Assembly: GCA_050290185.1 (NCBI GenBank) | Contig: JBNKHE010000006.1 | Coordinates: 160,001-224,000 of the forward strand | Direction: 5' to 3' | DNA length: 64,000 nucleotides | From: Pontiella sp. | Lineage (GTDB): Bacteria; Verrucomicrobiota; Kiritimatiellia; Kiritimatiellales; Pontiellaceae | Shown: positions 9,698 through 47,054 of the stretch, one piece after another | How the letters are laid out: the number at the start of each line of letters is the position of its first letter | How positions within the stretch are numbered: position 1 is the stretch's first letter | The notes under the pieces: model-generated | The model's database searches: none | Seen by the model: only the letters and a program-made list of their open reading frames with translations | What the model was told of the DNA's origin: nothing | Made by a program: the position numbers and the translations under genes

Positions 9698-12600
9698 TTA
9701 GTCCATCGTTTGAATATCGATTTCCGCGGCGCTGACCAGCGGCTTGCCGTTCTGCGAGGAAAGAGCCCGCAACCGCAGTGCGCTTCCGCCTACCGGTTTT
9801 TCAAACTCCACCGACTGCTGTCCAGCACCCGGCTTAAACGCTCCCCTGGCGGCTTCGGTCCAGTTCTCGCCATCGGCGCTGACTTCAACGACATAATTCC
9901 TGATCCGGCCGCTTTCCTTATCCTGCCGGGGCAGATAGGAAATGCCCGTGAGTATAACGGGCCGGTTGAGCTTGAGGGTGATCCACGCTTCGCTATCCTT
10001 GAAATCCGCGCTCCAGCAGGTCGACTTGTCGCCATCCTGCACGTTGACCGCCGGCGTCTGCTCGTTGCTGGCCATGATCTGCTCGATGAACTTATTGACG
10101 TACCCGATGGCTTCGTCCATCTCCTTGGTCGCGGATACCACGTTCTTGTACGGCCCGGTGTCTTCCAGTTCTACGGACAGCGGCGGGCCTTCATACAACA
10201 CCGCAATTTCCGCCAGCGCGGCGACGGTATCGTCGCCGAAACCGGAAAGCGCCCTGAGTTTGAGATGCGAAGCGGTCACCGTTTTGCCGAACGGAATCCG
10301 TTGCGGATCAAAGGTTGATTCCAGTTCGCCGGACGCAACCTTTGTCCATTGCCCGCCGTCATCGGATACGAGGATTTCATACTCCCGGATGTCGCCTTCG
10401 TGCGCGCGCTGGTCCTGCCGGTTCATGAGCACCAGTCCGGAAAACGGCCCGGCCTTGTCGAAAGCAACCGTCACTTCGTGGGGATGGCTTTCACTGAAGG
10501 CGGAAAGCCAGTATGAATTCGGATTGCCGTCGATCAGGTTTCCCGCGTCCCGCTTTTCCGTCCCGGAACTGGCCTCGGCCCTGGCGCCCAGCTTGCGCAT
10601 GATCAGATTGTCGAAATCGACCTGCCGCAGTTGATCGGGCGTGACGTTGACCGAGGGATTGAATTGCTCGCTCTGCATGTAGGTGAGCAGGCTGTTGCGC
10701 AGCTGCCGGGCGACGGGACGCTTGCTTAGATCCTTTTCCAGGCCCGGCGCACAGATCATCAGCTTGCCTGAACCGACACGGCATTCAACAACGGCGGCGA
10801 GCTTATAGTTCCGGTTCCAGTCGTCGATGACCTGTACGATCGGTTTCAGCTCACCGGGAAGGTGGTCCAAATTGATCGCGCGACAGTACGGATAGAATAT
10901 GTCACCCCATTGCCAGTCATAATGGAAGTCCGTCGCAAAGCCGGATAGAGCAGGATGTTTGGGGTCACATAAAATACCGAGGAAACGTTCCCACTTCGGC
11001 CCCATCAAGCGGCTCCAGAAAATGGGCAGGCGACCGATCGGCGGGCAATCCCAGCTAAGCTCATTGTAGCGGGGCATCCAAAGCACTTTGCTGCCGGCGT
11101 TCAACTTGTCGAGAGCTTCATCGAAGGAACGAGTCACAAAAACATCGCCATCGGACACCGCAATGTCTTTGGCTGGATAGACCCAGAACTCCCAATCATT
11201 CTCTGCCTCGATGTTTTCAATGCCGACGGTGAGCACATATTTTTTATTGGGCGCCAATTCAGACAGATCGACCGCCAGCTCGCCCAGCGAGGTTCCGTTG
11301 TCGATAGGAATATCCACGGCATCCAACTTGCCTGAAGCAACCACCCTTTCGTCAGCGGCAATGGTCCAAAATGGAACCGCGCCCGTCAGCGGTTCCATTC
11401 CGAAATGGGCAATCTCCAGCGGGATCTCCAGCGTTTCATCGGTGCGGTAAATATTCTTGGTCAGGCGCGCCAACGGCACGGTGACATTACAAAATCGACG
11501 AAACTGCACCGGCGTCACATAGCCCTTCGATTCCCAGAACACATTCAACAGGCCGACCAGCGCCGTGCCCTGCCCCGGATAGTCGTGCAGGTCGAGCAAC
11601 TGGAAGCCCCCCATGCCGGGCGTGCGCAACAGGGCTTCGATCTCCTGTTTGTAACATGCCAACTGGAATTTTCCACTGGCCATGAGGAAGTCGCCGGCCT
11701 GATCGAGCATGCCGTGCTCCTTGAGCGATTCGCGGAAGATTTCAAAATTTTTGGCCTTAAGGAACCCGGTGTATTCATCGATTTCCGAAAGATCGGGGAA
11801 GGCGCACCACTGGCCGGTCTCGTGGGAGATGACCGGATAGTTCACGCCGTCGAGCGACGCGGAAAAGTCGCGCCCATGCCACCCCTTATCGCCACGAAAG
11901 CGGTAGCTGCCGATGCGGATCGCATCGAGGAAGTCAATATCCGGAACCGGGCCGGGCTTTGTGCCGAAGTAGCGCCCGGTCTGGCTGGCATAAAGCCGGC
12001 GATTATCTTTTTCCTTCCAGCGGCGTGTCCAGTCGAGCAGCGGTTCCTGCCAACTGCCAGCCGGTTCGTTGCCGGTGGAGAACAACACGAAGGAAGGATG
12101 GTTCCCATAGGCATTGACCAGTTTCTCCGTTTCGCGCTCCAGCCATTCCAAAAGCTCATCTTTTTCCGCGCCGTACTGTCCCCAGTTCGAACATTCCGGC
12201 TGGAGATAGATGCCCAGTTCGTCGGCCGCAGTAAAGGCGGCCTCCGGCGGGCAGTAGGAATGAAAACGGACATGGTTCAGGCCGTAGGATTTGACAGTAT
12301 GGAAGATTTTCTTCCACGACGCGACATCCGTCGGCGGATAACCCGTCATCGGAAATGTGCATCCTTCGTGCGTACCCCGGAAAAATACCCGGTGACCGTT
12401 CATATAGAAACGGGCATCCTTGCTTTCGGGCTTCCGCAGCCCCACCTGAAAGGATTTTTCATCCGCCGCACTTGAGCCGGACAGCGTGAGCGTGAATGGA
12501 TAAAGCGCTGGCGTGAATTCGTTCCAGAGTTGAGCATCCTTCGGCAATGGCACCGTGATTTCGGCTTGTGCTCCGTCTTCCGTCCATGTGACCGGCTTTT

Positions 12601-13381
12601 CAACTCCTCCGACAGACAGCGTTCCGTTTCCGGGCTCGCCGGTTTCATTTCCAAGCTCCACCTTGAAGGTGGCGGTTTTGGCATCGATGTCCGTGAACAC
12701 CTTTGCGTCGGCAATATAGACAGGGGTTGTGGACTGCAGTTCAATGCGTCCAATAATCCCGTTCCAGTCCGTCTGCGTCGAATCGGTAATGCTGTGTGCA
12801 TCGGCACGGATCGTCTTGAGCATCCGGTTGTCGACCCGGATCGAAATCGTGTGCTTGCCGGGCTTCAGCATGCCAAGTTCGTAGATGTGCGGTGCCGACA
12901 GACAATCGTCGAAGCCGATCTTTTCGCCATCCAACCAAACCGTGGAGGACCAGTGGACGCGTTCGAGATAGAGCACGAAACGGCGGCCTGCCCAATCCTC
13001 CGGAATTTTAAACGACCGTGAATACCACGCCGTTCCCACATAGTGCCGTTCCGGTTGCAGCCAGTAGGGAATCTTGAAGTTGTCGGCAGTGGCATACTTT
13101 TTATACGGCGCGCGCAGATACCAGTATTTGTCGTAGAGCGTACCCAGCCAGGGCGTATTGGTCGAAGGCGGGTCGCCATAGCCCTGCTCCTGCAACGAGC
13201 CGGGCAGTTTGATCGAATCCGGTAACGCTTGATTGAACCACTGTTCCGCTACCCCGGCGTCGGCACGATCCAGCGCAAAGTTCCACCTACCCGATAGGTC
13301 GAGCTGATTCTGATCTGCGAGAGCAGCCAACGGGAACGCAATCAGAAATACTGCTACCAATCGCTCGTTTATCAACTTCAT
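9698..13381 (-). CDS. Secreted glycoside hydrolase family 2 with two C-terminal F5/8 (CBM32-like) domains
   Basis: Signal peptide; DLSGRWNF, WNGIIGRIEL, NHVRFHS, HPSFV...GNE (acid/base) and ISHE (nucleophile). Two discoidin-like repeats with DG...W and SxDG..W motifs. Confidence 0.88.
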   Translation of the reverse strand: MKLINERLVAVFLIAFPLAALADQNQLDLSGRWNFALDRADAGVAEQWFNQALPDSIKLPGSLQEQGYGDPPSTNTPWLGTLYDKYWYLRAPYKKYATADNFKIPYWLQPERHYVGTAWYSRSFKIPEDWAGRRFVLYLERVHWSSTVWLDGEKIGFDDCLSAPHIYELGMLKPGKHTISIRVDNRMLKTIRADAHSITDSTQTDWNGIIGRIELQSTTPVYIADAKVFTDIDAKTATFKVELGNETGEPGNGTLSVGGVEKPVTWTEDGAQAEITVPLPKDAQLWNEFTPALYPFTLTLSGSSAADEKSFQVGLRKPESKDARFYMNGHRVFFRGTHEGCTFPMTGYPPTDVASWKKIFHTVKSYGLNHVRFHSYCPPEAAFTAADELGIYLQPECSNWGQYGAEKDELLEWLERETEKLVNAYGNHPSFVLFSTGNEPAGSWQEPLLDWTRRWKEKDNRRLYASQTGRYFGTKPGPVPDIDFLDAIRIGSYRFRGDKGWHGRDFSASLDGVNYPVISHETGQWCAFPDLSEIDEYTGFLKAKNFEIFRESLKEHGMLDQAGDFLMASGKFQLACYKQEIEALLRTPGMGGFQLLDLHDYPGQGTALVGLLNVFWESKGYVTPVQFRRFCNVTVPLARLTKNIYRTDETLEIPLEIAHFGMEPLTGAVPFWTIAADERVVASGKLDAVDIPIDNGTSLGELAVDLSELAPNKKYVLTVGIENIEAENDWEFWVYPAKDIAVSDGDVFVTRSFDEALDKLNAGSKVLWMPRYNELSWDCPPIGRLPIFWSRLMGPKWERFLGILCDPKHPALSGFATDFHYDWQWGDIFYPYCRAINLDHLPGELKPIVQVIDDWNRNYKLAAVVECRVGSGKLMICAPGLEKDLSKRPVARQLRNSLLTYMQSEQFNPSVNVTPDQLRQVDFDNLIMRKLGARAEASSGTEKRDAGNLIDGNPNSYWLSAFSESHPHEVTVAFDKAGPFSGLVLMNRQDQRAHEGDIREYEILVSDDGGQWTKVASGELESTFDPQRIPFGKTVTASHLKLRALSGFGDDTVAALAEIAVLYEGPPLSVELEDTGPYKNVVSATKEMDEAIGYVNKFIEQIMASNEQTPAVNVQDGDKSTCWSADFKDSEAWITLKLNRPVILTGISYLPRQDKESGRIRNYVVEVSADGENWTEAARGAFKPGAGQQSVEFEKPVGGSALRLRALSSQNGKPLVSAAEIDIQTMD

Positions 13382-20079: not shown

Positions 20080-22815
20080 CTACGGCGAAGGTGTGCTGAA
20101 CACCCGGTAGAACGACTGGGAATTTTGCAGGCCATCGGGATCGGGAAATGCGATCAGGCTGTTCATGCCGCCCACCGTCGGACCAACACTGCTCCATCCG
20201 TTGGTGTCGCTCAGATCCATTGACGCCTGCATCTGGTAGTTGGTTCCCGTCTGTCCAAATGCACTGATAACGGTATCACCGCCAAGGAAGGTCATGGCGA
20301 TGCTGGAGATATACGCCGGTTCGGGAACATCCACTGCAAACTCATAGACGTGCAGCGGCGTGGGAATGCCATTCCCGGAAACATAGGTGTCATGCTCCTG
20401 AATGTAGACGGCGAGGATGTTGTCGGACAGCAGGCGCGGCTGGTCCAGCAACGGCTCCCCGTCGAAATCATGGTCGTCAATGACCTGCAACACTTCCCAG
20501 TCGGTATATTGGGACGCCTTTGAGGCGCTGGCAATCACCAGCGTTCCGGTAAAGGTGTTGTTAAGTCGAGCTCCGGGTATATCAAACTTGCCTACCGGCC
20601 AGTAAAGGAATGCCGCATAAACGTTGCCTTGGGCGTCATAGCCCATGCAGGGGCGGGACCCGACTTCATAGTCGCCATCCGGCGGTGGAATGCGCCGCTG
20701 CGTCCATTTACCGATGTCCGGATCCCGGAAGTAGTGGTAGTAGGCCGTGAATTTGTTGGAAAACTTTGCCGAGAAGAGCGCGGGGCCGTAGCCAGATTCC
20801 TGCCGGCGATGCAGCATAAGGGCATGCACCCGTCCATCGTTGTCCACGCACTGCGCCTGCTGGTTGATCAGCAGCTGCCGCATATTGAGAGGCACGACAG
20901 TGATGCCCGGCGAGTTCATCGTAATCTTCTGGCCAATACTCGTGTCGGCGATCTTCGTACCCGCATTGTTGTACCAGTTCGTCCCCAGATCCGGGCTGTA
21001 GGCGTAGCAGATATCACGATTCCCGTATTGGCTGGCCGATTCGCGCCAGGTCCATGTGACGTGGATCGTTCCATTGGAATCAAAGTCGAACCCGTTTAGA
21101 TACGCGCAGCGTTCATAAGCGGTGACCGTGTTGCCGTATGCATCGGTCCCCACGTAGGTGCCCGCCCGGTCGATGAACTCGACCTGCGGAAGCCAGTTCG
21201 TGGTCGCGGGATTGTACACATTGAGGTACTGGTCGCCGTTGCCGGATGTTACGTAGCGGCGATCCATGACCAGTCCGCCTGAAGGGGTCGTAATAAACTG
21301 CGGATAGGTCACATCACCTAATTGCGTGGAATCAACCCCCGGTGCCGTCAGCCAGTTTTGTTCGGCGTTCAGCATCCCGGGTTGTCCCCATGCATCCTTT
21401 TTGGTGGTGCACAGGCCGGCAACCGAGCGACGATAACGCAGCGCATTGTCGTGATGATCCCATGCCACGTGCAGCGTTCCATCCTGCGGGCAGATGCCGA
21501 AGGCAATCACATTATGGGCATCCCATGCGTTTTCATCGCCATTAATGAATTCGGAGTCGGTCTGAATAATCTCCCAATCGCCCACGGCGGTTTCATTGAC
21601 GGTTCTTCGTGCCAGGCAGACCTTCTGGACGGAACCGACGGTGTCATAGTAGGCCGTGTACTGGTAGCCATCGAAGGTGTAGAGAATCGAATCCTGGAAG
21701 GATACACCGTTAATAGCGTGGCCGTAGTTCCCCCCGCCCATCAGGCAGGCATTATTGGTGACGACCGAATCGCGCATGTAGGCCACACTGGGGGAAACCC
21801 ACGATGGGTGCTCCGAAGTGAGCAACGGATCAGTACCGCCTATGCGTTCGGCCTGGTTGTTATACCCGTCAAAATCCGGGTCATCATAGGAAGTATAGGT
21901 CAGGTTGGTGAAGTTTCCGAACTCCCAAAGATCCGGCAGGTAGTCGCCATCGGAATCCAAGCTACTGTCGTTCTGAACCGTCGGATCGAGTCCCAGCTCA
22001 TATTCCTGTTGGTTGGTGTAGCCGTCGTCGTCGTAGTCGTCGCCGGGCAGGACATCGTAGATATCCACGATCGCATCGCCGGGATTGTCGTCAGTGATCT
22101 GCTGTTCCCAGTCGTCGGGCAGACCATCGCCATCATCGTCGATGACCGTTGCATTCTGCAGGGTCAGGTTGTCCGCACTGCCGAGGATCCCGGTTGCGCG
22201 CACGTCGGCGTAGAATCCTACCACGTCGCCATCGTTCGGGGTCGAAGGCGTACGGGTGACGATTACCGTGCGATTCGTTCCATCGTAATACCCCGCTTCA
22301 TAGGTGTTTGCCGCCACTCGTTTAATAAACAGCTTGTCGTAGGCAGGGGCGCCTCCTCCGGCAAGGGCATATTCGGCCGTTCCGTCAAGACCCCGGGAAT
22401 ACAATTGCCCATTCCCACGGGCATAAACGGCAATATAGTCCTCCCGCACATCGGTTGCGGGCGTGGTTCCCCCCACGTAGAGCCCCAGATCCTGGCTTCC
22501 GGACACACTGAAATCCGCCTGTATTTCGTCATCCACCGCCAGGCTGAGACCGTCGCGAATGAAGGCATACTGTTCCGCGCCACTGACCGCCGTGCTTGTA
22601 TTGAGTACCAGCGCACCGCCGGAAATCTGCCAGGATGCGGTGTTATGCGATCCCCCATCGGTGTCCAGAATCCGCGTATGCGTATACGCGCTCAAATCTC
22701 CGCTGAAGCCATCGAGAAGCACGGTGGCCGCGAAAACGCTTCGAACCGACGCTATCGCGAAAACGAATGCGGCCGTGGCCCAGGGTGATTTGGTCATGGA
22801 TCTACTTCTTTTCAT
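20080..22815 (-). CDS. Secreted BNR_4-type beta-propeller protein (PL42/former GH145-like) with N-terminal novel domain, acidic Ca-binding repeats and C-terminal sorting-like domain
   Basis: Signal peptide; DDDGDGLPDDWE-type repeats; INGVSFQ..YQYTAYY, DAHNVIAFG..DGTLHVAWDHH, VTYPQF, TWTWRE and YAYSPDLG; tail YQMQASMDL..W...FYRV. Confidence 0.72.
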   Translation of the reverse strand: MKRSRSMTKSPWATAAFVFAIASVRSVFAATVLLDGFSGDLSAYTHTRILDTDGGSHNTASWQISGGALVLNTSTAVSGAEQYAFIRDGLSLAVDDEIQADFSVSGSQDLGLYVGGTTPATDVREDYIAVYARGNGQLYSRGLDGTAEYALAGGGAPAYDKLFIKRVAANTYEAGYYDGTNRTVIVTRTPSTPNDGDVVGFYADVRATGILGSADNLTLQNATVIDDDGDGLPDDWEQQITDDNPGDAIVDIYDVLPGDDYDDDGYTNQQEYELGLDPTVQNDSSLDSDGDYLPDLWEFGNFTNLTYTSYDDPDFDGYNNQAERIGGTDPLLTSEHPSWVSPSVAYMRDSVVTNNACLMGGGNYGHAINGVSFQDSILYTFDGYQYTAYYDTVGSVQKVCLARRTVNETAVGDWEIIQTDSEFINGDENAWDAHNVIAFGICPQDGTLHVAWDHHDNALRYRRSVAGLCTTKKDAWGQPGMLNAEQNWLTAPGVDSTQLGDVTYPQFITTPSGGLVMDRRYVTSGNGDQYLNVYNPATTNWLPQVEFIDRAGTYVGTDAYGNTVTAYERCAYLNGFDFDSNGTIHVTWTWRESASQYGNRDICYAYSPDLGTNWYNNAGTKIADTSIGQKITMNSPGITVVPLNMRQLLINQQAQCVDNDGRVHALMLHRRQESGYGPALFSAKFSNKFTAYYHYFRDPDIGKWTQRRIPPPDGDYEVGSRPCMGYDAQGNVYAAFLYWPVGKFDIPGARLNNTFTGTLVIASASKASQYTDWEVLQVIDDHDFDGEPLLDQPRLLSDNILAVYIQEHDTYVSGNGIPTPLHVYEFAVDVPEPAYISSIAMTFLGGDTVISAFGQTGTNYQMQASMDLSDTNGWSSVGPTVGGMNSLIAFPDPDGLQNSQSFYRVFSTPSP

Positions 22816-22873
22816 GTAATCTGTTCTCCGTATGGATATTAACGGCTTATCTATTATAACGTTTCAAACAATT

Positions 22874-22950
22874 CCGTAGCCACCGATGAACACCGGTTTG
22901 CACGGATGACTTTTTTATCGGTGTTCCACCGTATTGATCCGTGGCTGCGG
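22874..22950. repeat. Degenerate inverted repeat built from CACGGAT-like units
   Basis: Arms 22874-22907 and 22917-22950 match at 23 of 34 positions (counted by hand). Confidence 0.45.
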
Positions 22951-23026
22951 TTTTAATTCATTGGCTCTAGACCGCAGCACAGGCGTTGCAGATCAAACAC
23001 ATTTGCACCCAACCCGGCCATCGATA

Positions 23027-23072
23027 AATAAGAGGCGGCCTTGAACGGCACCACCGGTGCCATCAAGGCCGC
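23027..23072 (-). terminator. Probable intrinsic terminator after the LamG-repeat gene
   Basis: GCGGCCTTGA..GGCACC/GGTGCC..TCAAGGCCGC hairpin, followed on the minus strand by CTCTTATTT. Confidence 0.55.
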
Positions 23073-23122
23073 GTGGGCCCATCTTGATACGCCCCCGTCC
23101 GGGAGTGCATGCAACCCTGCTT

Positions 23123-25675
23123 CTATTCTCCCTGGATCTTGAAGAATTCTGCGGCATCGCCGCTGACGGCCACGGAATCTGAAGTGGTACCGTCGCCGGC
23201 GGAATCAATGCCCGTTTTCACCGGTAGCCAGGTGGCTCCCGTAAGCGTCGACTTGTGCAAAATGCTGTAGGTTACCCCCGATTGCGATGCCCACGTCAGG
23301 GTGGCGTTGCCCCCGGATACCACGATCGAGGTAATGTTGTACGGATCAATCACGATCGTGTCGCTGAACACGAACTCGTTGGCCGCGCGTGCCACCCTGC
23401 TGATGCGCACTTCGTCGATGGCCCCAACGAATTCCTCGGAGTCGTATCCGTTGCCGGGATAGTTGCGCAGTTCGTTGCCGACACCGAATTCCCCCAGCGC
23501 CGCAGGGTTTACCAGATCAACGGTCTGGGTGAAATTGGTCAGCACGTTGGCCTCCGTGGCCCCGCTATCGAGCCGGGTCCAGTAGAAGGTTACATTGTTG
23601 CTCGCCGACTCATTGCCGTTGTACGCTATAGCGACATGGTACCATTCATCGGCCATGATCGCATGCGGACCGCTCAGCGGCAGCGACGCGTCCATGGTTG
23701 TCGCAGCGGTACCAACAGGATCGAAGCGCAGCGTGCTTCCATCGGATTCGATCCGGAACTGGAACGGCCGGCCTTCCACACCGCCGTTTCCTTCCGCCGT
23801 GATGATGTGCATGGCATGTGATGCCGCGCCAGGAATCCAGGCGGGCTGGATAACCGCTTCAAAGGTAAAGGCTCCCGAGGCGGCATCCACGAAGTTGCTC
23901 ATCGCGATGGCCGTATCGAACTCCGCGGCCAGCCGGTTGCCCGGATGGATGGCGTCGTCAAATCCAACCGCCGCTCCAAAGCCGGTGAAGGCATTCATAC
24001 CGAAGACCGGATTATCGTATCCCGTCAGGTTGATCGGGCTGGTCGGCACGTCGTCGTAGGCAACACTCTTCCATACTGCAGGCACCGGGTCGTGCGTGTC
24101 GTCGAAGTGGAACAGCAGCAAGGTATCGACGGTTACCGCATACGGCGATCCGGTCAGGTGGAATCCACTTGGGGCGATGGCGGAGTCGCTGACCCGGACT
24201 TCGTCGATCAGCCCCACAAAGTTTTCGGACGAGATTCCACGGCTCTCGTTGCCGATGCTGTATTCGCCGGTCAGATCAGCGGCAACATTGGCGATGTCGT
24301 TGGTCATGTGGAACGATCCAATCAGGTTGGCGGCCGTATTGGTTCCGTTGAGCTTGGTCCAGTACACGTTCAGATTGTTGTCGGTATCTTCCGAACCGTT
24401 GTAGCTTACGGCAACGTGATACCAGTTGCTTTGCGCCGCCGCATGGTCGCCGGCCATCGGCAATGGAGCCGTAAAGGATTCCGTGAACTTTTCGGGCGAG
24501 ATGACCGTTCCCGTCTGCGCAAATTTGGCGATGTTGGTCACGGTTCCCAAAACACCGGTGCTGCGGACATCGGCATACACACCCACCACATCGCCGGCGT
24601 TCGGGGTGGTTGGGGAGCGCGTTGCAACGACGTGAATTTGGCCGACATCGTCGAACCAACCGGTTTCATAGGTATTGGTCGCCGTGCGTGCTATGTAGAC
24701 GCCTTGGATCGGGCCGCCGGCCACTCCCCCTCCGGAAAGGGCGTATTCGCCCGTCCCATCAAACCCCCTGGAATAGACCGTGCTTTGATCGCGGGCATAG
24801 ACAGCAACATAATCCTGCCGGGTGCCGGCCACCGGCGTGGTGCCGCCGACATAGAGCCCGATATCCTGGGAGGCGCCCGTGTGGTCGATATAGGCGCGGA
24901 TTTGTTCGCCCACGGCCAGGCTGACTCCGGACTTGACCATGACATACTGCTCGATGCCGTCATACGCCGAGGTGTCCAGCTGAAGCCCGCCGCCCTGGAT
25001 CTGCCATATCGCCGTATTGGCTGAGCCGCCGTTGGCGTCGAGTATAACCGTACTGGTCCAAGTGGACAGGTCGCCGGTAAAGTCGTCGACAACCTCCGAT
25101 ATGGACCAGACGTTGGAGCCCACCGCCGGGGTGTAGGAACCGATATTGGAAAATTCAACCGACCATTGCCCGTTGGAGGCCGGCGGCTTCAGCCGGAACT
25201 GGAAAAAGCGATTGGTGGATGCGCCGTCTTCGGAATCGAAGGTCATTATTTCCATGGGCGCGGAGCGGCCGGCAAGGCTGGTCGACGGATCAAAGATCGG
25301 GTAGACCAGCGCCTCATAGGTGAAGGCCCCCGATGCCCCGGTCAACTGGTTGTCGAGCGAGTAGGAGCCGCTGTCGTTATAGGCAATGGCATCCAGCCCG
25401 GCCTGCGTATTCAAAGCCCCGCCCAGCGACACATTATATGCCGGAGCCATCAACGATGCGCCATTGGTTACGTTCAGGTTGAGCGCGCCGACACTAACGC
25501 TTTCCGTCGCCTCAATCACCGGCAGCACGCCGGGAGCTGCTTCATCCAAATGCCACAGGTGCAAGGTGTCCGCATCCGGGGCATAGGGGCTGACCGCCAT
25601 TACCGCAGGTGCCGTGCATACAAAGGCTGCCAGACCCATTGCACACAAGCGATTGAAACCGTGGTTCGTGATCAT
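23123..25675 (-). CDS. Secreted protein with two LamG-like jelly-roll repeats, an inserted novel domain and a C-terminal sorting-like domain
   Basis: Start MITNH behind GAGGAGG; two repeats DTL.L.H.D..GAFT.EA...WYHVA..YNG...F.G.IDEVR.S; tail LTWAS..G.TY....L....W...FFKI. Confidence 0.78.
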   Translation of the reverse strand: MITNHGFNRLCAMGLAAFVCTAPAVMAVSPYAPDADTLHLWHLDEAAPGVLPVIEATESVSVGALNLNVTNGASLMAPAYNVSLGGALNTQAGLDAIAYNDSGSYSLDNQLTGASGAFTYEALVYPIFDPSTSLAGRSAPMEIMTFDSEDGASTNRFFQFRLKPPASNGQWSVEFSNIGSYTPAVGSNVWSISEVVDDFTGDLSTWTSTVILDANGGSANTAIWQIQGGGLQLDTSAYDGIEQYVMVKSGVSLAVGEQIRAYIDHTGASQDIGLYVGGTTPVAGTRQDYVAVYARDQSTVYSRGFDGTGEYALSGGGVAGGPIQGVYIARTATNTYETGWFDDVGQIHVVATRSPTTPNAGDVVGVYADVRSTGVLGTVTNIAKFAQTGTVISPEKFTESFTAPLPMAGDHAAAQSNWYHVAVSYNGSEDTDNNLNVYWTKLNGTNTAANLIGSFHMTNDIANVAADLTGEYSIGNESRGISSENFVGLIDEVRVSDSAIAPSGFHLTGSPYAVTVDTLLLFHFDDTHDPVPAVWKSVAYDDVPTSPINLTGYDNPVFGMNAFTGFGAAVGFDDAIHPGNRLAAEFDTAIAMSNFVDAASGAFTFEAVIQPAWIPGAASHAMHIITAEGNGGVEGRPFQFRIESDGSTLRFDPVGTAATTMDASLPLSGPHAIMADEWYHVAIAYNGNESASNNVTFYWTRLDSGATEANVLTNFTQTVDLVNPAALGEFGVGNELRNYPGNGYDSEEFVGAIDEVRISRVARAANEFVFSDTIVIDPYNITSIVVSGGNATLTWASQSGVTYSILHKSTLTGATWLPVKTGIDSAGDGTTSDSVAVSGDAAEFFKIQGE

Positions 25676-25699
25676 TGATTCCCTCCTCTTTATCAAAAT

Positions 25700-25727
25700 G
25701 ACAGGACCGCGCGTGCGCGGTCCTGTC
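25700..25727 (-). terminator. Intergenic hairpin (terminator/attenuator) between PEP-CTERM and LamG genes
   Basis: Perfect inverted repeat GACAGGACCGCGC-GT-GCGCGGTCCTGTC, followed on the minus strand by ATTTT. Confidence 0.55.
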
Positions 25728-25743
25728 GCCCATACCATACAAC

Positions 25744-26448
25744 CTATCTTTTGAACATACGGCGGCTCGCGAACAGGCCGGCGCCGAAGATGCCGATCAG
25801 ACCGATCGTGGCCGGTTCCGGGATGACCTGAAGATTGTCGAGGTTGCCGAGCGTACCCGCTCCGCGAACATCGGTGTAGAACCCGACAACCGTACCGTCA
25901 TTCGCTGTGCCAGGTGTACGGGTCGAGATAACGTTACGGGTTGCGCCATTGTAGTATCCGGTTTCATAGGTGTTCGCTGCCGTACGGGCAATAAACAGCT
26001 GCGTGTAAGGCTGAACACCGGCACCATCAAGGCCATATTCACTCGTGCCATCGAACCCACGGGAATACAAAGCGCCATCTCCACGGGCATATACTGCCAC
26101 GTAATCCTGACGCGTGCCGGCAACCGGAGTGGTTCCTCCAACATACAATCCGATGTCCTGGGAGGCGCCAGAATGCGTAAGATCAACCTGAACCTCTTCG
26201 CCCACAGCCAGACTCAGTCCGCTGCGAACGATGGCCATCTGCTCAATGCCGTCATAGACGCTGGTGTTCACTTCCATCGTTCCGCTGGGCGATTGTACCG
26301 CGAAGGTATTTCCTGCCCCGCCGTTGGCGTCGAGTATAACCGTTGCCGTGTATTCACTTACATCCGTATCATTAAAGTCGTCGATCAGGACGGCTTGAGA
26401 AGCGGCTGCAAGGCCCAATACTACGGCACCCGTTAGTAGTTTCTTCAT
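25744..26448 (-). CDS. PEP-CTERM sorting-domain protein made of a single novel ~190-aa domain
   Basis: Signal peptide MKKLLTGAVVLGLAAASQA; C-terminal IPEPATIGLIGIFGAGLFASRRMFKR; GGAG RBS. Confidence 0.92.
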   Translation of the reverse strand: MKKLLTGAVVLGLAAASQAVLIDDFNDTDVSEYTATVILDANGGAGNTFAVQSPSGTMEVNTSVYDGIEQMAIVRSGLSLAVGEEVQVDLTHSGASQDIGLYVGGTTPVAGTRQDYVAVYARGDGALYSRGFDGTSEYGLDGAGVQPYTQLFIARTAANTYETGYYNGATRNVISTRTPGTANDGTVVGFYTDVRGAGTLGNLDNLQVIPEPATIGLIGIFGAGLFASRRMFKR

Positions 26449-26756
26449 TTTTATTCTCCTAATTTTCTGTTCATCTGTATGCCTTACTTAGGACATAGCT
26501 CCATTAATACATGCGAAAAACGGCCCTCCGCTGAGTCCACGTTTTTTTGAGAAATGTGTACAATCCTGTTATCTGACAACAGGAACAGGGGGGGATTTCT
26601 TGCATGACTACCGGTGTTTAAGAGCTGTTTTAACCGGATGCGCCCGCTTTGTAGGCGCAACGGCAGGCCATAATCAGAAGGATTCGGATTTCAGCAATAG
26701 CCCTCCCCAAGAGGGCGTGACGGTCATGCCGGGGCAACGCGCAGATCATCTGGTTT

Positions 26757-29018
26757 TCAGGGCGTTTTTTCGATCATCGCTTCGGCTTCATGTAAATGAA
26801 TGCGAACGCAGGCCTGATCGAACCAGAAACCCTGCCATACTTTCGATTTTGAAGGTTCGGCGGAAAACAACGCCTGGATACCGGCCCGGGTCCTTTCAAG
26901 CAGGACTTGCGCCTCTACTTCCCGCCGCAACCGGAAGAACGCGCAGGATTGGATCAGCCGCACGCTGTAGTTGCGGGTGGGCAACCCGCTATTATGGCGA
27001 TTGGCCTGTTCACACCAATACAGGGTTTGCTCGAAGTCCCCGCGACGATAGTTGAACAGCGCCATGGCATAGGCCTGCCAACCCCGAAGCGGATCATTCT
27101 CCTTTGTTCTGCCCTCGCGGATGGATCGTTCGGTCACTCGGGCATATTGATCCAGGGCAAGCATCAGCTCATCGTCGGCGGGAGCCAGCAGACTATTCTG
27201 CAGTATCCGCTGGGCAACCCTCGGGTTGTCCGAGCCGGCATAGCGCGTGATCATGATTTCCTGGAAACGTCTGTACTCTGCCAGATAGCCCTGCTCCACG
27301 AGCAACGCCGCCAGCCGGACGTCGTCCCTCGTGCTCTCGGGCCCCTCGAATTCATTGATCCGGGTCAGTACATCGAAGCGGGCCTTGGCTTTTTCCCAAC
27401 GACCGTTCAACGCATGCCAATCTCCGACATTCCGATACATCAAGGAGTTTTCCAGGGTTGCCTGCGGATGCTGGATCCCGTCCAGGATCACATCAGCCTG
27501 CTCCTTTTCTCCTTTCTGAACCAGCGCCGAGGCCTGGGCCAGTTTATGCTGGTCCTCGACACTGCTCCGCAGGACCTCCGCCTCCTCCTGCAGCACGCCC
27601 TTCTGTTGTTCAGCAATCCGCGCCTTGATCAGGAGCCAGGTAGAGACGGTGGAACTCATCAAAAGGACGGCCAGCGTCACACCTCCAGCAGCAAAAACAA
27701 CCTTGTTGCGGCGAACCAGTTTCCGCAGACGGTAACAACGGCTCGGCGGGCGGGCGATGACCGGTTCATGGTTGAGGTAGCGCTGGATATCGGCGGCCAA
27801 TCCATCCGCCGATCCATAGCGTCGATCCCGATCCTTTTCGAGCGCTTTCATAATGATCCAGTCCAGATCCCCTTCCAGCAAGGCCCGCAGTCTGGACGGA
27901 TGGAGACCGCGGCTTTTCGATATCTTCGCCTGATCTTCCGCAGGCAACCGGGCAAGCCTTGCTGACGGACGGGATGGTTCACATTCTCGAATCGTTCGGC
28001 GCATCGCCTCCAATCCGGACCGGATCAGTTTTTTCTGGTCGAAGGGAGTTTTGCTGGTGAGCAGTTCATAGAGCAGAACGCCAAGACTGTAGATGTCGCT
28101 CCGCACATCGATATCCTGCTCAGCCAAATCTGCCTGCTCGGGACTCATGTAGGCGGGCGTCCCGATGATCTGTTCGCAGGCGGTATATGCCGTATGATCA
28201 CCGAGCAACTCCCCCCCGGTCGCCTTGGCAATGCCGAAATCGATCACCATCGGATCCGGCACTCCATCCCGCTCTGTTATGATAATGTTCGAAGGCTTGA
28301 TATCCCGATGGATAATACCTTTTTGATGGGCGTGCTGAATGGCGTGACAGATTTGGATAAACAGATGCAAGCGCCGGGAAATATCGAGATCGTGCTCGTT
28401 GCAATACGTCGTGACCTCGGTGCCGTGCACCAGCTCCATGACAAAGAAGGGGCGGCCGTCATCCGTTTCACCTGCATTGAGTACGTGGGCAATATTCGGA
28501 TGCTCCATCATCGCAAGGGTCTGCCGCTCAGCCTCGAACCGGGCAATCACGCTTTTGGTATCCATCCCGCGCTTGATGATCTTCAGGGCGACCTGCCGAC
28601 GAACCGGCTTAACCTGTTCCGCCAGATAAACGCTGCCCCCGCCACCTTCACCGATTCGTTTTAGAAGCGTGTAATGTCCGATCTGTTTACCGACCTCTCC
28701 ATCATCCGGAAGCGGCGAGACTTCGGGCCCATTCATTCCGGTGTCTTCGATCACGGTCTGGGTAAGTTCCACGACGGAAACAGACGTCGGGCTGATCGTC
28801 TGGAACATCTCCACGGCCTCGTCCTGGGAGGCCAGCATCTTCTGCACGGCCGTATGAAGCCCGGGATCCCCGGCACAAGCCTCCTCAATAAAAGCCATCC
28901 GCTCTTCTTCCGATTTTATTTCGAGCGCGGCGCAGAATATATCCTCCGCACGTTCCGAGGGGAAATTCGCCATCAAATCGTCATGATTCAGCATATCGCA
29001 ATAACCTGCTCCTTGCAC
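26757..29018 (-). CDS. Membrane Hanks-type Ser/Thr protein kinase (ECF-associated)
   Basis: IGEGGGG.VY, VALKIIK, HRDIKPSN, DFGIAK, GTPAYMSPEQ and DIYSLGV; TM segment and helical TPR-like C-terminus. Start may be ATG 28994. Confidence 0.93.
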   Translation of the reverse strand: MQGAGYCDMLNHDDLMANFPSERAEDIFCAALEIKSEEERMAFIEEACAGDPGLHTAVQKMLASQDEAVEMFQTISPTSVSVVELTQTVIEDTGMNGPEVSPLPDDGEVGKQIGHYTLLKRIGEGGGGSVYLAEQVKPVRRQVALKIIKRGMDTKSVIARFEAERQTLAMMEHPNIAHVLNAGETDDGRPFFVMELVHGTEVTTYCNEHDLDISRRLHLFIQICHAIQHAHQKGIIHRDIKPSNIIITERDGVPDPMVIDFGIAKATGGELLGDHTAYTACEQIIGTPAYMSPEQADLAEQDIDVRSDIYSLGVLLYELLTSKTPFDQKKLIRSGLEAMRRTIRECEPSRPSARLARLPAEDQAKISKSRGLHPSRLRALLEGDLDWIIMKALEKDRDRRYGSADGLAADIQRYLNHEPVIARPPSRCYRLRKLVRRNKVVFAAGGVTLAVLLMSSTVSTWLLIKARIAEQQKGVLQEEAEVLRSSVEDQHKLAQASALVQKGEKEQADVILDGIQHPQATLENSLMYRNVGDWHALNGRWEKAKARFDVLTRINEFEGPESTRDDVRLAALLVEQGYLAEYRRFQEIMITRYAGSDNPRVAQRILQNSLLAPADDELMLALDQYARVTERSIREGRTKENDPLRGWQAYAMALFNYRRGDFEQTLYWCEQANRHNSGLPTRNYSVRLIQSCAFFRLRREVEAQVLLERTRAGIQALFSAEPSKSKVWQGFWFDQACVRIHLHEAEAMIEKTP

Positions 29019-29030
29019 AAGCGTGCAAGA

Positions 29031-29588
29031 TTATGTGTGGGAGTTAATGACCTCGAGCAGCCAGGTTCTGGCACACGTCCAATGGCGAACCACAGAGCTT
29101 TTACCAATGCTCAGGGTTTCGGCCACTTCCTCGTTGGTCATTCCCCCAAAGAATTTCAGCACGACCACCTGTGCACGCTGGGGATTCACCTTTTCAAGCA
29201 GCTCCAACGCCTCGTCCACCAGGAGGATGCGCTCCTCCCTGACAGATTCCGCCAACTCAATTTCATCGACGTCCAGTCTTTGCTGATCCCCCCCGCGCTT
29301 CAGACTTGATTTCCGACGGGCATGGTCGACCAGAATGCGCCGCATCGCCGTAGACGCCGCGGCATAGAAACTGGCGCGGTTTTGCCAGGTACGGTCACTC
29401 TCTCCCACCATGCGGAGCCAGGCTTCATGCACAAGCGCCGTCGCCTGCAGGGTATGGTCGCCGAATTCCCGGGACATGTGTATCCGGGCCAGCTTACGCA
29501 ATTCCTCATAGACCAAGGGTAAAAGCGCCTTCGACTGATCGGAGTCGCCATGAGCAGCAGATTTCAGCATTAACGTAAAATCATTCAT
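29031..29588 (-). CDS. ECF sigma factor of the PVC type (TIGR02999-like)
   Basis: LLPLVYEELRKLA, HTLQATALVHEAWLR, AMRRILVDHARRK...KRGG and VVLKFFGG.T.EE.A. Start placed at MNDFT. Confidence 0.92.
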   Translation of the reverse strand: MNDFTLMLKSAAHGDSDQSKALLPLVYEELRKLARIHMSREFGDHTLQATALVHEAWLRMVGESDRTWQNRASFYAAASTAMRRILVDHARRKSSLKRGGDQQRLDVDEIELAESVREERILLVDEALELLEKVNPQRAQVVVLKFFGGMTNEEVAETLSIGKSSVVRHWTCARTWLLEVINSHT

Positions 29589-36294: not shown

Positions 36295-37134
36295 TTAGGC
36301 GGGCCAGTGCTTGTCGATGTGGGCGATGCAGTGGGCAACGGTCTCGGGACTGGATTCCTCCAGCAGGATGCTCATGCCCGGTCCGGCGGCAGAAATCAGG
36401 CTACAGAGGCGGCTGTAGTCCAGCTCGCCGAAACCAGTGGGGATCTGCTTGTACTCACCGTTTTCCATCGAGAAATCCTTGGCGTGGATAATCTTGATGC
36501 GGTCGCCGTAAAGCTGGAATGGCTCCTCGATCATGCGGGCCTGATCGTGCGCGTTATCAGCGTTGATCAGATTCACCGGATCATGGATCACGACAAGATT
36601 CGTTGATTGGATTTCGTCGAGCAGGCGTTTCATTTTTTGCGGTGTTGAAGTCGTATGATGCGTAACCGCTTCGACGGCCACTTTGACGCCGTGCTTTTCC
36701 GCTTCGGCCACCAGCTGTTCCATGGTGCGGAGCATGGCCTGGAAGTTTTCTTCGCTGCCCGTATCGGGATGAGGTGAATAACCGGGTGTCGGTGTTCCGG
36801 TTTCGAGCCCGACCAGTCCACAGCCCATGTCGCGGACATAGCGCACGTGATCCTTGAAAAAATCAATCAGGTTTGCACGAACCGCCTGATCCGGATGGAT
36901 GGGATTGATATAGCATCCGAGCACCGCAATCTGTACGCCGTTGCGCAGAAAGCCCTGGCCCACTTCCCAGGCCAGCCCGGGGTTGAGCTGGCCCGCTTTC
37001 AAGTTAAGCCCTTCAATTGCGACATTCAGCGCAACCTGTGCACAGCAGAGGTTCTTTTCCGCCAGCCGTGCACCCAGAGCGTCTGCTGAACCGGTTCCAA
37101 AATCGTGGGCACGGGCACCAATCCGTTTCATCAT
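36295..37134 (-). CDS. Sugar phosphate isomerase/epimerase (xylose isomerase-like TIM barrel)
   Basis: LGCYINP.HPD, ETG, AVEAV, DPVN, IHAKD and LLEE; ATGA overlap with GH105. Confidence 0.88.
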   Translation of the reverse strand: MMKRIGARAHDFGTGSADALGARLAEKNLCCAQVALNVAIEGLNLKAGQLNPGLAWEVGQGFLRNGVQIAVLGCYINPIHPDQAVRANLIDFFKDHVRYVRDMGCGLVGLETGTPTPGYSPHPDTGSEENFQAMLRTMEQLVAEAEKHGVKVAVEAVTHHTTSTPQKMKRLLDEIQSTNLVVIHDPVNLINADNAHDQARMIEEPFQLYGDRIKIIHAKDFSMENGEYKQIPTGFGELDYSRLCSLISAAGPGMSILLEESSPETVAHCIAHIDKHWPA

Positions 37135-39320
37135 ATCTCCTGCAATGCTTTTTCGGCGCAAGCCTGATATTCGTTCAGTTTCTTCACTTCCACGCCGGCG
37201 AGCAGTACAATACCTATGCCGTGGGTGTCGTTGAGCTTCCAGAGCAAATCGTTGATATAGTAGTCCGGTGTGAACGAAAACTCCGAGCCGCGGCAGACGC
37301 CGTGTACGTTGCCCCTGTTATCGATCGCGATGCGGTTAAGCGCCTTCCAGGCCTTGTGTACGGCCTCGGCATAGATATCCGGATGGTCCAGCCAACCGTA
37401 GCGAATACCGCGGGAGAATGCATAGATGAACATCGAGGTGCAGGAGGTTTCCGGATAGGATTCATGATGGGTTAGCACCTGATGCCACATCCCCTCTTCA
37501 TCCTGCAGCGCGCATATGCCTTCGCAGAGGGCCCGGAAGAAGCCAATCAGGTCATCACGCCTTTCATGGTCTTCGGGAAGCACGGCGAGAAGTTCTGAAA
37601 GGGAAAACAACGGCCAGCCGTTGGCCCGCCCCCACGGAATACCGGTAGCCATCCCGCGGCCGATATCATAGACATGCGACATGATCTGCTGCTCCGGAAT
37701 ATAGAGCCGTTTCTTGAATCCGAAGAACTGGTTGGCTGCGTCGTCGATATAGCGGCGATCTCCGGTAAGCTGGTAGTAGCGGCAGAGAAAGGGCACGCTC
37801 ATATAAAGATCATCCGCCCACATGGTGTTGTTGTGAAACGTATGCATCATGTCCCGACGATAGAATGTGCCATCCTCGAAGCGGTCCTGCTTGTTGGCGA
37901 TATGATCGCCCACCAGTTCGGCAATCGGCTCGTACCCTTCGATGTCGCAATGTTTTACCACTTCCAGCATGCAGGAACCGAAGGACCCGCAGTCGTCGAG
38001 GCTGTCGATGCTCGAAAGCAGGTTATGGACATGGGTTGCTCCGCCAAATCTGGCCCGGTCCCACTTGGAATAGGGATAGGTCGTGCAGCAGAACTGTACG
38101 TGGTCGCGGACATAATCCTTAACTTTGTCCGAGCCGAGCTCCATGGACGCATGCAGAAGACCATAAAGGGTAACGCCGAGCGGATAGTTCCATTGACCGA
38201 ACAGCGGGGTTTCGTTGTAGAGCCGCAGATAGGTGTCCGGCGCATCAATCCGCCAGTATCCCTGACCTTCAGCCGTTTCGTGAATGGAGAAAAAGTCCGT
38301 AAGCGACTCCAGCTCAGGCAAGGCAGCCGGATCAAACGGTCCGGCGAAGAGCCAGATTGCATCGCTCCCCTGCAGATCGCACGGGCAGCGGGTTTCAACA
38401 TTCAGCTCGAGTTCAAATCCCCAGCCTTCTTCCGTGCCGGTGCAAAGCACCATCAGGTCATGCGATCCGGACGACAGCTTGAATTGGCCGCTCAATTCTC
38501 CGGAAACATCATTCACTGCAATCTCAGTGCCATCGCATAGTATCCGAATGCCGCCGGTGTGACTCCCCGAAAGCAATGCGTTGACCGGGCTGTCCCCGTG
38601 ATTCTCGATCTTGGTCCAGGCAATGGCCGTCCTTCCCGGTTCCGATCCGTAGATGCGGCCGCAGTTGCCCAGAGCGCGTTCGCTTTCAGACCATTCTGCA
38701 GCCGGATTCCAGACAACGTCCGTATCCCTTTCGTTCTGACCTTCAAGAGGGAGAACCTCTTGATCGGAAGGGAGCGGACTCGAGAAGAGCCACCCTTCCT
38801 GACCCTCCCTTTCGGGTGAAGGCATCATGAAGACATAAGGATGCTTGCCGATCCACGAGCCGAACTTCCATCCGAAGCCGCCACGGGTCTTTTTGGCCCG
38901 GATGACAAAGTGGTTCCAGCCGGCCTTCAGATGCAACGTAATCCGGTTATACTGCTCCGGATCCCGCTCGGAAAAAATGTTGGAGCGCCAGACTTCCTCT
39001 CCGTTTAGGAAAAGCAACATGGGGCCATAGCAGTTGAGATCAAACATGAGCTCACCAGCCGCTTCCGACCACATCTTGGCCCAGGCGTATACGCACTCCT
39101 CATTCTGTGCATCCGGAAAAAAGGTATTGAAGTCGGCCGCGTAGCGGTAGTCGATGGCGCGTTGGATCCCGCGCTCAGAATAGGCCCGGAAGGTTATTGG
39201 ACCACGGGGGTTCAGCTCCATATAGTGGTCAGCAACGACGGAGAGTGTGGTTTCCACCTGATCTCCGGCCTGCCTGGCCATACTCAAATTGTCGTCGAAA
39301 TAAAATCCCATATCATTCAC
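37131..39320 (-). CDS. GH105-family unsaturated uronyl hydrolase with long N-terminal extension
   Basis: WNYP.GV, LDDCG, MWADDLYM, WGRANGW, GMWHQV, ETSCTSMF and DTHGIG. GTG start; no obvious signal peptide. Confidence 0.88.
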   Translation of the reverse strand: MNDMGFYFDDNLSMARQAGDQVETTLSVVADHYMELNPRGPITFRAYSERGIQRAIDYRYAADFNTFFPDAQNEECVYAWAKMWSEAAGELMFDLNCYGPMLLFLNGEEVWRSNIFSERDPEQYNRITLHLKAGWNHFVIRAKKTRGGFGWKFGSWIGKHPYVFMMPSPEREGQEGWLFSSPLPSDQEVLPLEGQNERDTDVVWNPAAEWSESERALGNCGRIYGSEPGRTAIAWTKIENHGDSPVNALLSGSHTGGIRILCDGTEIAVNDVSGELSGQFKLSSGSHDLMVLCTGTEEGWGFELELNVETRCPCDLQGSDAIWLFAGPFDPAALPELESLTDFFSIHETAEGQGYWRIDAPDTYLRLYNETPLFGQWNYPLGVTLYGLLHASMELGSDKVKDYVRDHVQFCCTTYPYSKWDRARFGGATHVHNLLSSIDSLDDCGSFGSCMLEVVKHCDIEGYEPIAELVGDHIANKQDRFEDGTFYRRDMMHTFHNNTMWADDLYMSVPFLCRYYQLTGDRRYIDDAANQFFGFKKRLYIPEQQIMSHVYDIGRGMATGIPWGRANGWPLFSLSELLAVLPEDHERRDDLIGFFRALCEGICALQDEEGMWHQVLTHHESYPETSCTSMFIYAFSRGIRYGWLDHPDIYAEAVHKAWKALNRIAIDNRGNVHGVCRGSEFSFTPDYYINDLLWKLNDTHGIGIVLLAGVEVKKLNEYQACAEKALQEI

Positions 39321-46906: not shown

Positions 46907-47054
46907 TTCATCCCTCTGGTGTTTTGCGGAGACCTCTATTTGGGCAGCGTGCAGTCGGACGTGGCTCCCTTAACTGCTCGGCCCGCGATCCACCCCCGGC
47001 CACCCGGTGAATGCTTCCGCTCAATGAAGGTTGAATATCCATGGGGTATTCCTC

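Follow-up and report, generated by a model that had tools for sequence, protein, structure and literature searches.

Here we describe a 190-residue domain that occurs in three secreted proteins of the bacterium Pontiella sp. (Verrucomicrobiota; Kiritimatiellia). The genes lie in a 64,000-nucleotide stretch of its genome, called the window below (assembly GCA_050290185.1, contig JBNKHE010000006.1, positions 160,001 to 224,000), where five co-oriented minus-strand open reading frames (ORFs) form a cassette at 20080..29588 (Table 1). On the sequence evidence the domain is a real, uncatalogued protein family. We lean, by a modest degree, towards reading it as a putative non-catalytic binder of L-rhamnose-capped glycans, housed in a SusD-less cassette under a kinase-activated, ECF43-like sigma factor of the extracytoplasmic function (ECF) type. 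Rha-alpha-1,4-GlcA would be the most likely ligand end. The original prediction, made from the DNA letters, had placed three co-oriented secreted proteins next to an ECF sigma/kinase pair and had seen one unrecognised domain in all three. The genes are indeed there, and the copies are 54-60% identical.

An uncatalogued domain family

No Pfam or NCBIfam family matches the domain (0 families at E<=1), and PDB sequence searches with the domain and with two profiles returned nothing below E 0.02; in these databases it is as unrecognised as had been claimed. The CBM66, GH43_C2, LamG and DUF1080 profiles are absent among the matches listed (best 25) for 120 members, and also among 61 members. A literature search, with subscription papers mostly outside its range, turned up neither the domain nor any carbohydrate-active enzyme (CAZyme) loci headed by ECF43 factors.

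Homologues were collected as 160 near-length proteins (best 120 taken), 62 longer proteins and 207 representatives at 50% clustering (best 150 taken). The family counts rest on 319 gathered proteins, at least 283 of which have the full-length domain. Most of these (186/283) are no longer than 330 aa, and 177 of the 186 carry a PEP-CTERM-like tail. In the 97 longer proteins the domain is N-terminal (50), C-proximal (34) or central (13), and it is doubled in 4. The fusion partners include BNR_4, GH78, GH16, an alginate-lyase family, GHL15 with CBM6, sulfatase with esterase, a GH-A core with ricin, PKD, Ig and LamG. Given these fusions and a model of the domain alone with a predicted local distance difference test score (pLDDT) of 97, it is a discrete folded domain appended to CAZymes, as a carbohydrate-binding module (CBM) would be.

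Named carriers belong to the Planctomycetota and to the Verrucomicrobiota, including Kiritimatiellia; among named relatives, those from Pontiellaceae (Kiritimatiellia) come closest. The matches include three cultured carriers, Haloferula luteola, Aeoliella sp. SH292 and Pontiellaceae B1224. The spread is patchy: 36 further genomes of the genus gave 3 carriers, and 24 others of the order gave none. A draw of 401 genomes from the phylum, scored with the full-length profile on 7 candidates per genome, gave matches in 24. These cover the domain in 5 only (source genome included) and the PEP-CTERM tail only in the remaining 19. Gene neighbourhoods were compared across 30 loci (labelled L below), each spanning 20 kb or less, which the genus, order and phylum sets may overlap.

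Predicted fold and conserved residues

An AlphaFold2 model of the domain built from 120 sequences (pLDDT 97.4) has 15 strands and no helix. The predicted fold is a concanavalin-A (ConA)-like beta-sandwich, a two-sheet jelly-roll over residues 1-190 with Z scores up to 15.8. A wide structural search placed the C-terminal sandwiches of glycoside hydrolase family GH43 at the top (Z 15.8, root-mean-square deviation 3.1-3.2, 168-170 residues aligned). Further matches are a phage receptor-binding domain (Z 15.1), CBM66 (14.6) and the lectin domains of thrombospondin and galactocerebrosidase; GH16 and DUF1080-type proteins rank below the lectin domains. The top matches are nearly tied and are 7-13% identical to the domain. 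Foldseek ranks L-type lectins first, and a viral fold search returned minor tail and receptor-binding sandwiches with nothing past the shared fold. The ESM Atlas clusters DUF6645 (0.95, 133/256 features), PelX_N, GH43_C2 and DUF1080 have low shared counts and are leads only. The comparison with CBM and lectin structures proposed by the original prediction gives a lectin- or CBM-type sandwich, as predicted by the model. The claim of a new module stands for the sequence family and fails for the fold, which is an old one. No observation speaks for the self-assembly role that the original prediction had offered as the alternative to glycan binding.

The four polar residues Q51, R94, D174 and R176 form a set that is complete in 182/185 stand-alone and 95/101 fused copies, including members with as little as approximately 27% identity. 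Y172, D79 and E50 are kept in 80-95% (Y172 in 268 of 286 domains). The aromatic or arginine positions 83, 101 and 111 vary in 68 distant members. Strand alternation in the DSSP string suggests that Q51, D79, Y83, Y97, Y101, R103, R111, Y172, D174 and R176 lie on one sheet surface. D4-x-F6, G37 and D185 resemble the structural calcium site of the ConA-like fold.

The ConA-like fold alone does not separate a binder from an enzyme. As a small enzyme of jelly-roll fold, the domain could be a lyase, a hydratase or a hydrolase. Its substrate would be a rhamnose/uronate glycan or the unsaturated product released by the PL42-like lyase of the cassette, and the fusions would be bifunctional. In a distant alignment of 61 sequences five columns (Q51, R94, G170, D174 and R176) are invariant, a tightness like that of an active site to which the retention of Y172 adds, and the stand-alone form is the commonest in the family. 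GH16 enzymes carry an ExDx(x)E catalytic motif on a cleft strand, and enzymes of polysaccharide lyase family PL7 carry RxExR, QIH and YFKxGxYxQ motifs. The GH16-type motif is not conserved in the 286 aligned domains; the PL7 motifs, QIH among them, are absent apart from a GxYxD resemblance, and the family profile has no conserved His. Three copies in a single locus, tandem pairs, the insertion into LamG and the unrelated catalytic partners also fit a binder better, and we regard an enzyme as fairly unlikely.

Three old copies

The three copies in the cassette share 104/192, 112/188 and 110/189 residues pairwise, with 84 invariant columns, and find one another by tblastn at E 1e-55 to 1e-63. 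No fourth copy was found by tblastn in the 3.58 Mb genome. The stretch that had been reported as identical in two copies is 29 residues long and is the same in both. Its codons differ at 15 of 29 positions and 22 of 56 fourfold sites match in this pair, so the identity reflects protein-level conservation and no recent duplication. The other two pairs match at 14/48 and 20/51 fourfold sites, and all are near saturation. From their sequences, the three copies are old and have been kept alike by selection; recent triplication or gene conversion is ruled out by the near-saturated silent sites. One 26-nt run outside that stretch is identical between copies 1 and 2 and is possibly a short conversion tract.

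Copy 2 is a true insert in the LamG-repeat protein, as had been proposed. On either side of the copy, residues approximately 30-215 and 409-526 are covered by alignments to the second LamG domain and to three homologues that have no insert. A single-sequence model of the LamG-plus-insert region has a pLDDT of 34, too low to be used.

In a tree of 50 domains (L008, a near duplicate, was left out and L029 has no full-length match) the solo and fused copies are sisters in L003 (98/90), L020 (100/95) and L024 (100/100). Such pairs would be expected if the domain were a like-binds-like docking module, tying scaffold and lyase to the PEP-CTERM-anchored copy in a cellulosome-like manner. In the same direction, 4 of the 18 PEP-CTERM proteins of the genome have a private domain in common with a neighbouring large protein. 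However, the three window copies are not sisters, and the one on the enzyme clusters with its enzyme-borne counterparts from other Pontiellaceae (100/100). Several loci have one copy only, and the same residues are conserved everywhere, unlike in locus-specific docking pairs. Docking therefore strikes us as very improbable. The other PEP-CTERM proteins of this kind are at contigs C3:62988, C4:47722 and C4:56823, and a different domain is shared in L012:4722 and L030:3835.

Rhamnose-releasing enzymes beside the domain

The 30 loci, which supplied the enzyme queries, represent Planctomycetia, Phycisphaerae, Kiritimatiellia and Verrucomicrobiae; exemplars were checked with Pfam among 74 selected ORFs. 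A rhamnose-type enzyme is encoded in 24 loci (BNR_4/PL42-like in 18, GH78 in 7, GH105 in 3 and GH106 in 2), and L024 additionally has a rhamnose isomerase. What gives the context weight is not the count of 24/30 but the recurrence, in four classes, of three rhamnose-releasing families that are unrelated to one another. Two further genomes, G341 and G373, both have GH78 near the domain. Of the remaining 17 PEP-CTERM genes in the source genome, 0 lie within 10 kb of a gene for such an enzyme. The rhamnose/uronate context of the original prediction is supported by these neighbours. The same LamG type is present in 14/30 loci and a pilin-like N-methyl/DUF1559 gene in 9/30. Arabinogalactan-protein as a substrate is not pinned down, because the GH43 of L003 is of the arabinanase type and the GH16 of L012 is nearest to laminarinases, not galactanases.

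A rhamnose link could also arise, through shared ancestry of one locus, for a binder of some other or broader ligand (uronate, a sulfated sugar or an exopolysaccharide that the cell itself makes) or for a structural spacer. The loci are not independent, the partners include GH16, an alginate-lyase family and sulfatase, and the variation at positions 83, 101 and 111 would suit such a ligand range. PEP-CTERM/EpsH systems are moreover tied to exopolysaccharide genes (PMC1569441, available part). Yet the link holds over four classes, three regulator types and three rhamnose-releasing families. The patchy presence in the genus speaks against a housekeeping or coat role, and a spacer would not retain four polar residues. 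We give this alternative a low probability.

The lyase and the sugar pathway

The enzyme of the cassette is predicted from its sequence to be a PL42-like lyase. BNR_4 is confirmed in it (E 8e-66), and its best PDB match, aligned over the whole propeller, is FoRham1 (E 2e-39). FoRham1 (PDB 7ESK) is a PL42 L-rhamnose-alpha-1,4-D-glucuronate lyase (PMC8377490, available part). GH145 BT3686 (5MUK) matches at E 7e-19, and the enzyme is far under the NCBIfam BT3686 cut-off (121 vs 700 bits). It keeps 11 of 12 FoRham1 site residues named in the available part of PMC8377490, namely H434, H455, Y504, R520, S524, Y572, R591, N651, Q652, R721 and E787, with F373 replacing Tyr26. These residues were assigned manually, at an offset of 2 residues in the alignment, and the Arg331 region is loosely aligned. 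By this assignment the PL42 anterior site described there (His85, His105, Arg166, Tyr150 and the Rha/GlcA contacts) is present, with 11 of 12 residues identical.

A GH105 gene lies 17 kb away, at window 37131-39320, and the genome encodes one GH78 and KduI. The GH105/GH88 protein (729 aa) is followed by a sugar-isomerase-like TIM barrel (together 36295-39320, minus strand), likely a uronate step. A second, distant BNR_4 protein adjoins kduI (contig C1:678609-681745). SusD (PF07980) has no match in the genome, which is 95.5% complete, and its three TonB barrels sit on other contigs, so that the locus is not a canonical SusC/D polysaccharide utilization locus (PUL). The description of the system as one without SusCD is supported: the genome has no SusD match and the locus no TonB receptor.

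Regulation of the cassette

The sigma factor passes TIGR02999 and has QATA with Thr50 where ECF43 members have QTTA or QATE (available parts of PMC13147305 and PMC7826278). As in that group, a Thr in a QTTA-like sigma-2.2 motif replaces DxxD, an intact kinase is adjacent and there is no anti-sigma; the group was assigned from TIGR02999 and the motif rather than with an ECF-group hidden Markov model. The P-loop, HRD, DFG and SPE motifs of the kinase are intact, and the protein has a hydrophobic segment from residue 440 and a C-terminal region like tetratricopeptide repeats. The genome has five TIGR02999 sigmas, all beside a kinase and flanking CAZyme genes. The clusters of the other four pairs hold GH43/GH51, GH31/GH51/GH27, GH31/GH43 and GH97/GH29.

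A shared motif consisting of an A/T tract, TG-N4, 17-18 nt and CG[CT]-N3/4-TA-N3-AT was found upstream of the first cargo genes. The window candidate has an A/T tract, TG-N4, an 18-nt spacer and CGC-N3-TA-N3-AT. With a matrix from three paralogous cassettes, five unseen cassette genes rank 4, 5, 6, 8 and 9 among 2863 upstream regions, the PEP-CTERM gene being rank 8; no more than 63 of these regions are within 12 kb of a sigma of this type. Scored with the same matrix, the sites of L003 and L012 would take ranks 6 and 4. An exact gapped-word search found no word common to more than 3 of 8 regions, and counts of sigma-70 promoters and terminators showed no excess over shuffles. The motif supports the prediction that the ECF43-like sigma directly controls the cassette, and the inducible system proposed earlier is likely, by way of the ECF/kinase pair. 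Rank 7 is a short ORF like a kinase N-terminus (contig C2:391350-391661, 103 aa), possibly a remnant cassette, and the C4 cassette has three copies of the motif.

Across the 30 loci the regulator slot holds a kinase in 2, an ECF factor with a FecR-like anti-sigma in 12 and a histidine kinase in 4; in both kinase-bearing loci the fetched sequence stops short of the sigma. A conserved linkage of the domain with an ECF/kinase pair, which the original prediction had set as a criterion, is not supported: besides the low count of kinases, the pair heads five different CAZyme clusters in the genome. The linkage holds within Pontiellaceae only, because the upstream slot is interchangeable across the family. 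Some sensors in the slot bear domains of sugar-binding type: in L006 (10644-13253) the slot histidine kinase carries the same LamG type, and in L005 (5384-7102) a FecR-like protein carries NPCBM.

Points against a rhamnose binder in a sigma-controlled cassette

Several observations weigh against the reading that we favour. Enzymes of GH16, PL7 and DUF1080 among the matches have the same fold, and the near-invariant Gln/Arg/Asp/Arg set with Tyr172 could be catalytic. The shared concave face was read from the DSSP string, not from coordinates, and R94 falls within a loop. The loci are related to one another and two genomes are included twice, so 24/30 overstates the association, and L008, L013, L019, L025, L027 and L030 have no such enzymes; several of these end at contig edges. 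In G341 the domain is in a sulfatase/fucosidase-rich cluster, and for this reason the ligand may vary. RhaA, RhaI and RhaM have no match in the 95.5% complete genome, which may therefore strip rhamnose caps rather than eat rhamnose. The promoter motif was first spotted by eye and then tested by the matrix, and the LamG and lyase genes have no promoter-like site upstream (ranks 1161 and 2089). The two hairpins between the cargo genes could block read-through. Finally, the destination of PEP-CTERM proteins in these bacteria is presumed.

A model for the cassette

If the domain is a rhamnose-cap binder, the cassette could work as follows. A glycan cue would activate the membrane kinase, which would phosphorylate Thr50 of the sigma factor. 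The transcript would begin approximately 50-90 nt ahead of the PEP-CTERM gene, with the hairpin 3' of that gene leaving the small protein in excess. Once processed by exosortase, the PEP-CTERM protein would serve as a surface glycan-binding protein and keep glycan at the envelope. The same module would direct the LamG scaffold and the PL42-like lyase to the same glycan ends, where the lyase would cut off rhamnose by beta-elimination. The GH105 enzyme and KduI would deal with the unsaturated uronate, and the glycan would be opened to the arabino- and galacto-hydrolases of the genome.

The locus and its neighbours

LamG3 and Pkinase are, like BNR_4, confirmed by Pfam/NCBIfam. The start of the LamG gene is probably 25675 (Met22, with a strong ribosome-binding site) rather than 25738. 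The PEP-CTERM tail is under the Pfam cut-off and just over that of TIGR02595 (16.3 vs 16). The protein has the signal peptide, PEP motif, hydrophobic helix and basic tail of an exosortase substrate, and the genome encodes exosortase (two PF09721 matches). The hairpin downstream of its gene is terminator-like or a stabilising stem. One sequencing run of doubtful kind (0.07 share) contains short contigs that cover the PEP-CTERM and LamG genes, and neither expression nor a ranking of genes is readable from them.

The C-terminal tail of approximately 80 residues is found by an iterated profile on 56 proteins of the genome, including both large proteins of the locus. It sits on secreted proteins, ends in F[YF][RK]-hydrophobic and has no NCBIfam match. 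Homologues end in PEP-CTERM or dockerin-like regions instead, and the tail is a candidate sorting or anchoring signal.

An aldose 1-epimerase (window 8537-9571, plus strand) and a GH2 with F5/8 domains (9698-13381, minus strand) are in the 7-11 kb range from the cassette. Three consecutive large sensor-kinase-like ORFs (1086, 1104 and 1770 aa) occupy 40335-52367 on the minus strand, with response regulators downstream.

Table 1. Features of the cassette (window coordinates unless a contig is named)
Feature	Coordinates	Strand	Evidence
ECF43-like sigma factor, QATA motif, Thr50 at the EcfK phospho-Thr position	29031..29588	-	TIGR02999 and motif comparison (sources available in part)
Hanks-type Ser/Thr kinase	26757..29018	-	Pkinase (Pfam)
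Candidate ECF43 promoter, 91 nt upstream of PEP-CTERM gene	26499..26555	-	Matrix rank 8/2863
Stand-alone protein: signal peptide, 190-residue domain, PEP-CTERM tail (234 aa)	25744..26448	-	Pfam/NCBIfam
Domain copy 1, whole mature PEP-CTERM protein	25825..26391	-	Sequence and predicted fold
12-bp hairpin then ATTTTG, between PEP-CTERM and LamG genes	25700..25727	-	z -2.8; 1/200 shuffles as stable
Secreted scaffold-like protein: domain-split LamG1, LamG2, F[YF]R-type C-terminal tail	23123..25675	-	Pfam, profile
Domain copy 2, insert in first LamG domain	24527..25093	-	Sequence alignment
C-terminal tail domain (~80 aa) of LamG protein	23126..23368	-	Iterated profile
Stable hairpin between LamG and lyase genes	23035..23072	-	z -4.6; 0/200 shuffles as stable
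Secreted PL42-like enzyme: domain, acidic TSP3-like repeats, BNR_4 propeller, C-terminal tail	20080..22815	-	
Domain copy 3, N-terminal on PL42-like enzyme	22162..22719	-	Sequence alignment
Predicted PL42-like catalytic propeller	20329..21720	-	Alignment to FoRham1
C-terminal tail domain of PL42-like enzyme	20092..20337	-	Iterated profile
Five sigma/kinase pairs of the genome	C1:646905, C1:628013, C1:264790, C4:67999, window 29031-29588		

Comparison with known systems

The family is a new part in a variant PUL architecture; the fold and the enzyme type are already known and no new principle is involved. Planctomycetes and Verrucomicrobia are major degraders of complex glycans, and the family bears on how polysaccharides are captured without SusC/D. 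The protein is small and well modelled, four of its residues are singled out and a ligand class is predicted, so the question can be put directly to a binding experiment. If the reading is true, glycan foraging would join defence and stress among the roles of phosphorylation-activated ECF43 sigmas, and a candidate promoter is in hand.

Like CBM66 (4B1M) and the GH43 C-terminal sandwich (5JOZ, 6MS3; GH43_C2, labelled CBM91), the domain is predicted to be a ConA-like sandwich over its full length (Z 14.6-15.8, root-mean-square deviation 3.1-3.2) and is appended to CAZymes. It differs from them in its low identity, in having no profile match and in its own Q/R/D/R set. It is also mostly stand-alone with PEP-CTERM, and its context is rhamnose, whereas theirs is fructan or xylan. 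In contrast to FoRham1 and BT3686, the window enzyme is bacterial and multi-domain, with the module, TSP3-like repeats and the tail, and has Phe for Tyr26.

EcfK/PknS of Xanthomonas citri and EcfP of Vibrio likewise have an adjacent membrane kinase, no anti-sigma and a retained Thr (available parts of PMC13147305 and PMC7826278). Their motifs are QATE and QTTA, and that of the window sigma is QATA. The outputs described there are T6SS and stress genes, whereas here five paralogous pairs flank CAZyme clusters.

Kiritimatiellia CAZyme clusters with two-component regulators have been described (bioRxiv 10.64898/2026.10.06.756941), with no mention of PEP-CTERM found in the available part of that text. 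Term counts over the available parts of PMC11685898 and PMC11131199 gave no mention of PEP-CTERM, DUF1559 or SusC. Most PEP-CTERM proteins have no assigned function (PMC1569441, available part).

The locus likewise resembles the PULs of Bacteroidota, in that a sensor-regulator, a putative binder and enzymes for one glycan are grouped, with PL42-like and GH105 partners. Bacteroidota PULs for arabinogalactan-protein comprise a sensor-regulator, a surface glycan-binding protein, enzymes, PL42/GH145 and GH105. The locus differs in that it has no SusD or TonB receptor, that PEP-CTERM or the tail domain replaces the lipid anchor, and that the regulator slot is filled by kinase/ECF43, ECF/FecR-like or two-component systems. 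More tentatively, such loci may represent a third kind of PUL, found in the Planctomycetes-Verrucomicrobia-Chlamydiae group. This would be a cassette under ECF43 or an interchangeable sensor in which a private lectin module is deployed on a PEP-CTERM anchor, a scaffold and an enzyme. The module would be the first binder of rhamnose caps, or a tiny enzyme acting on them, and the promoter motif would predict the regulons.

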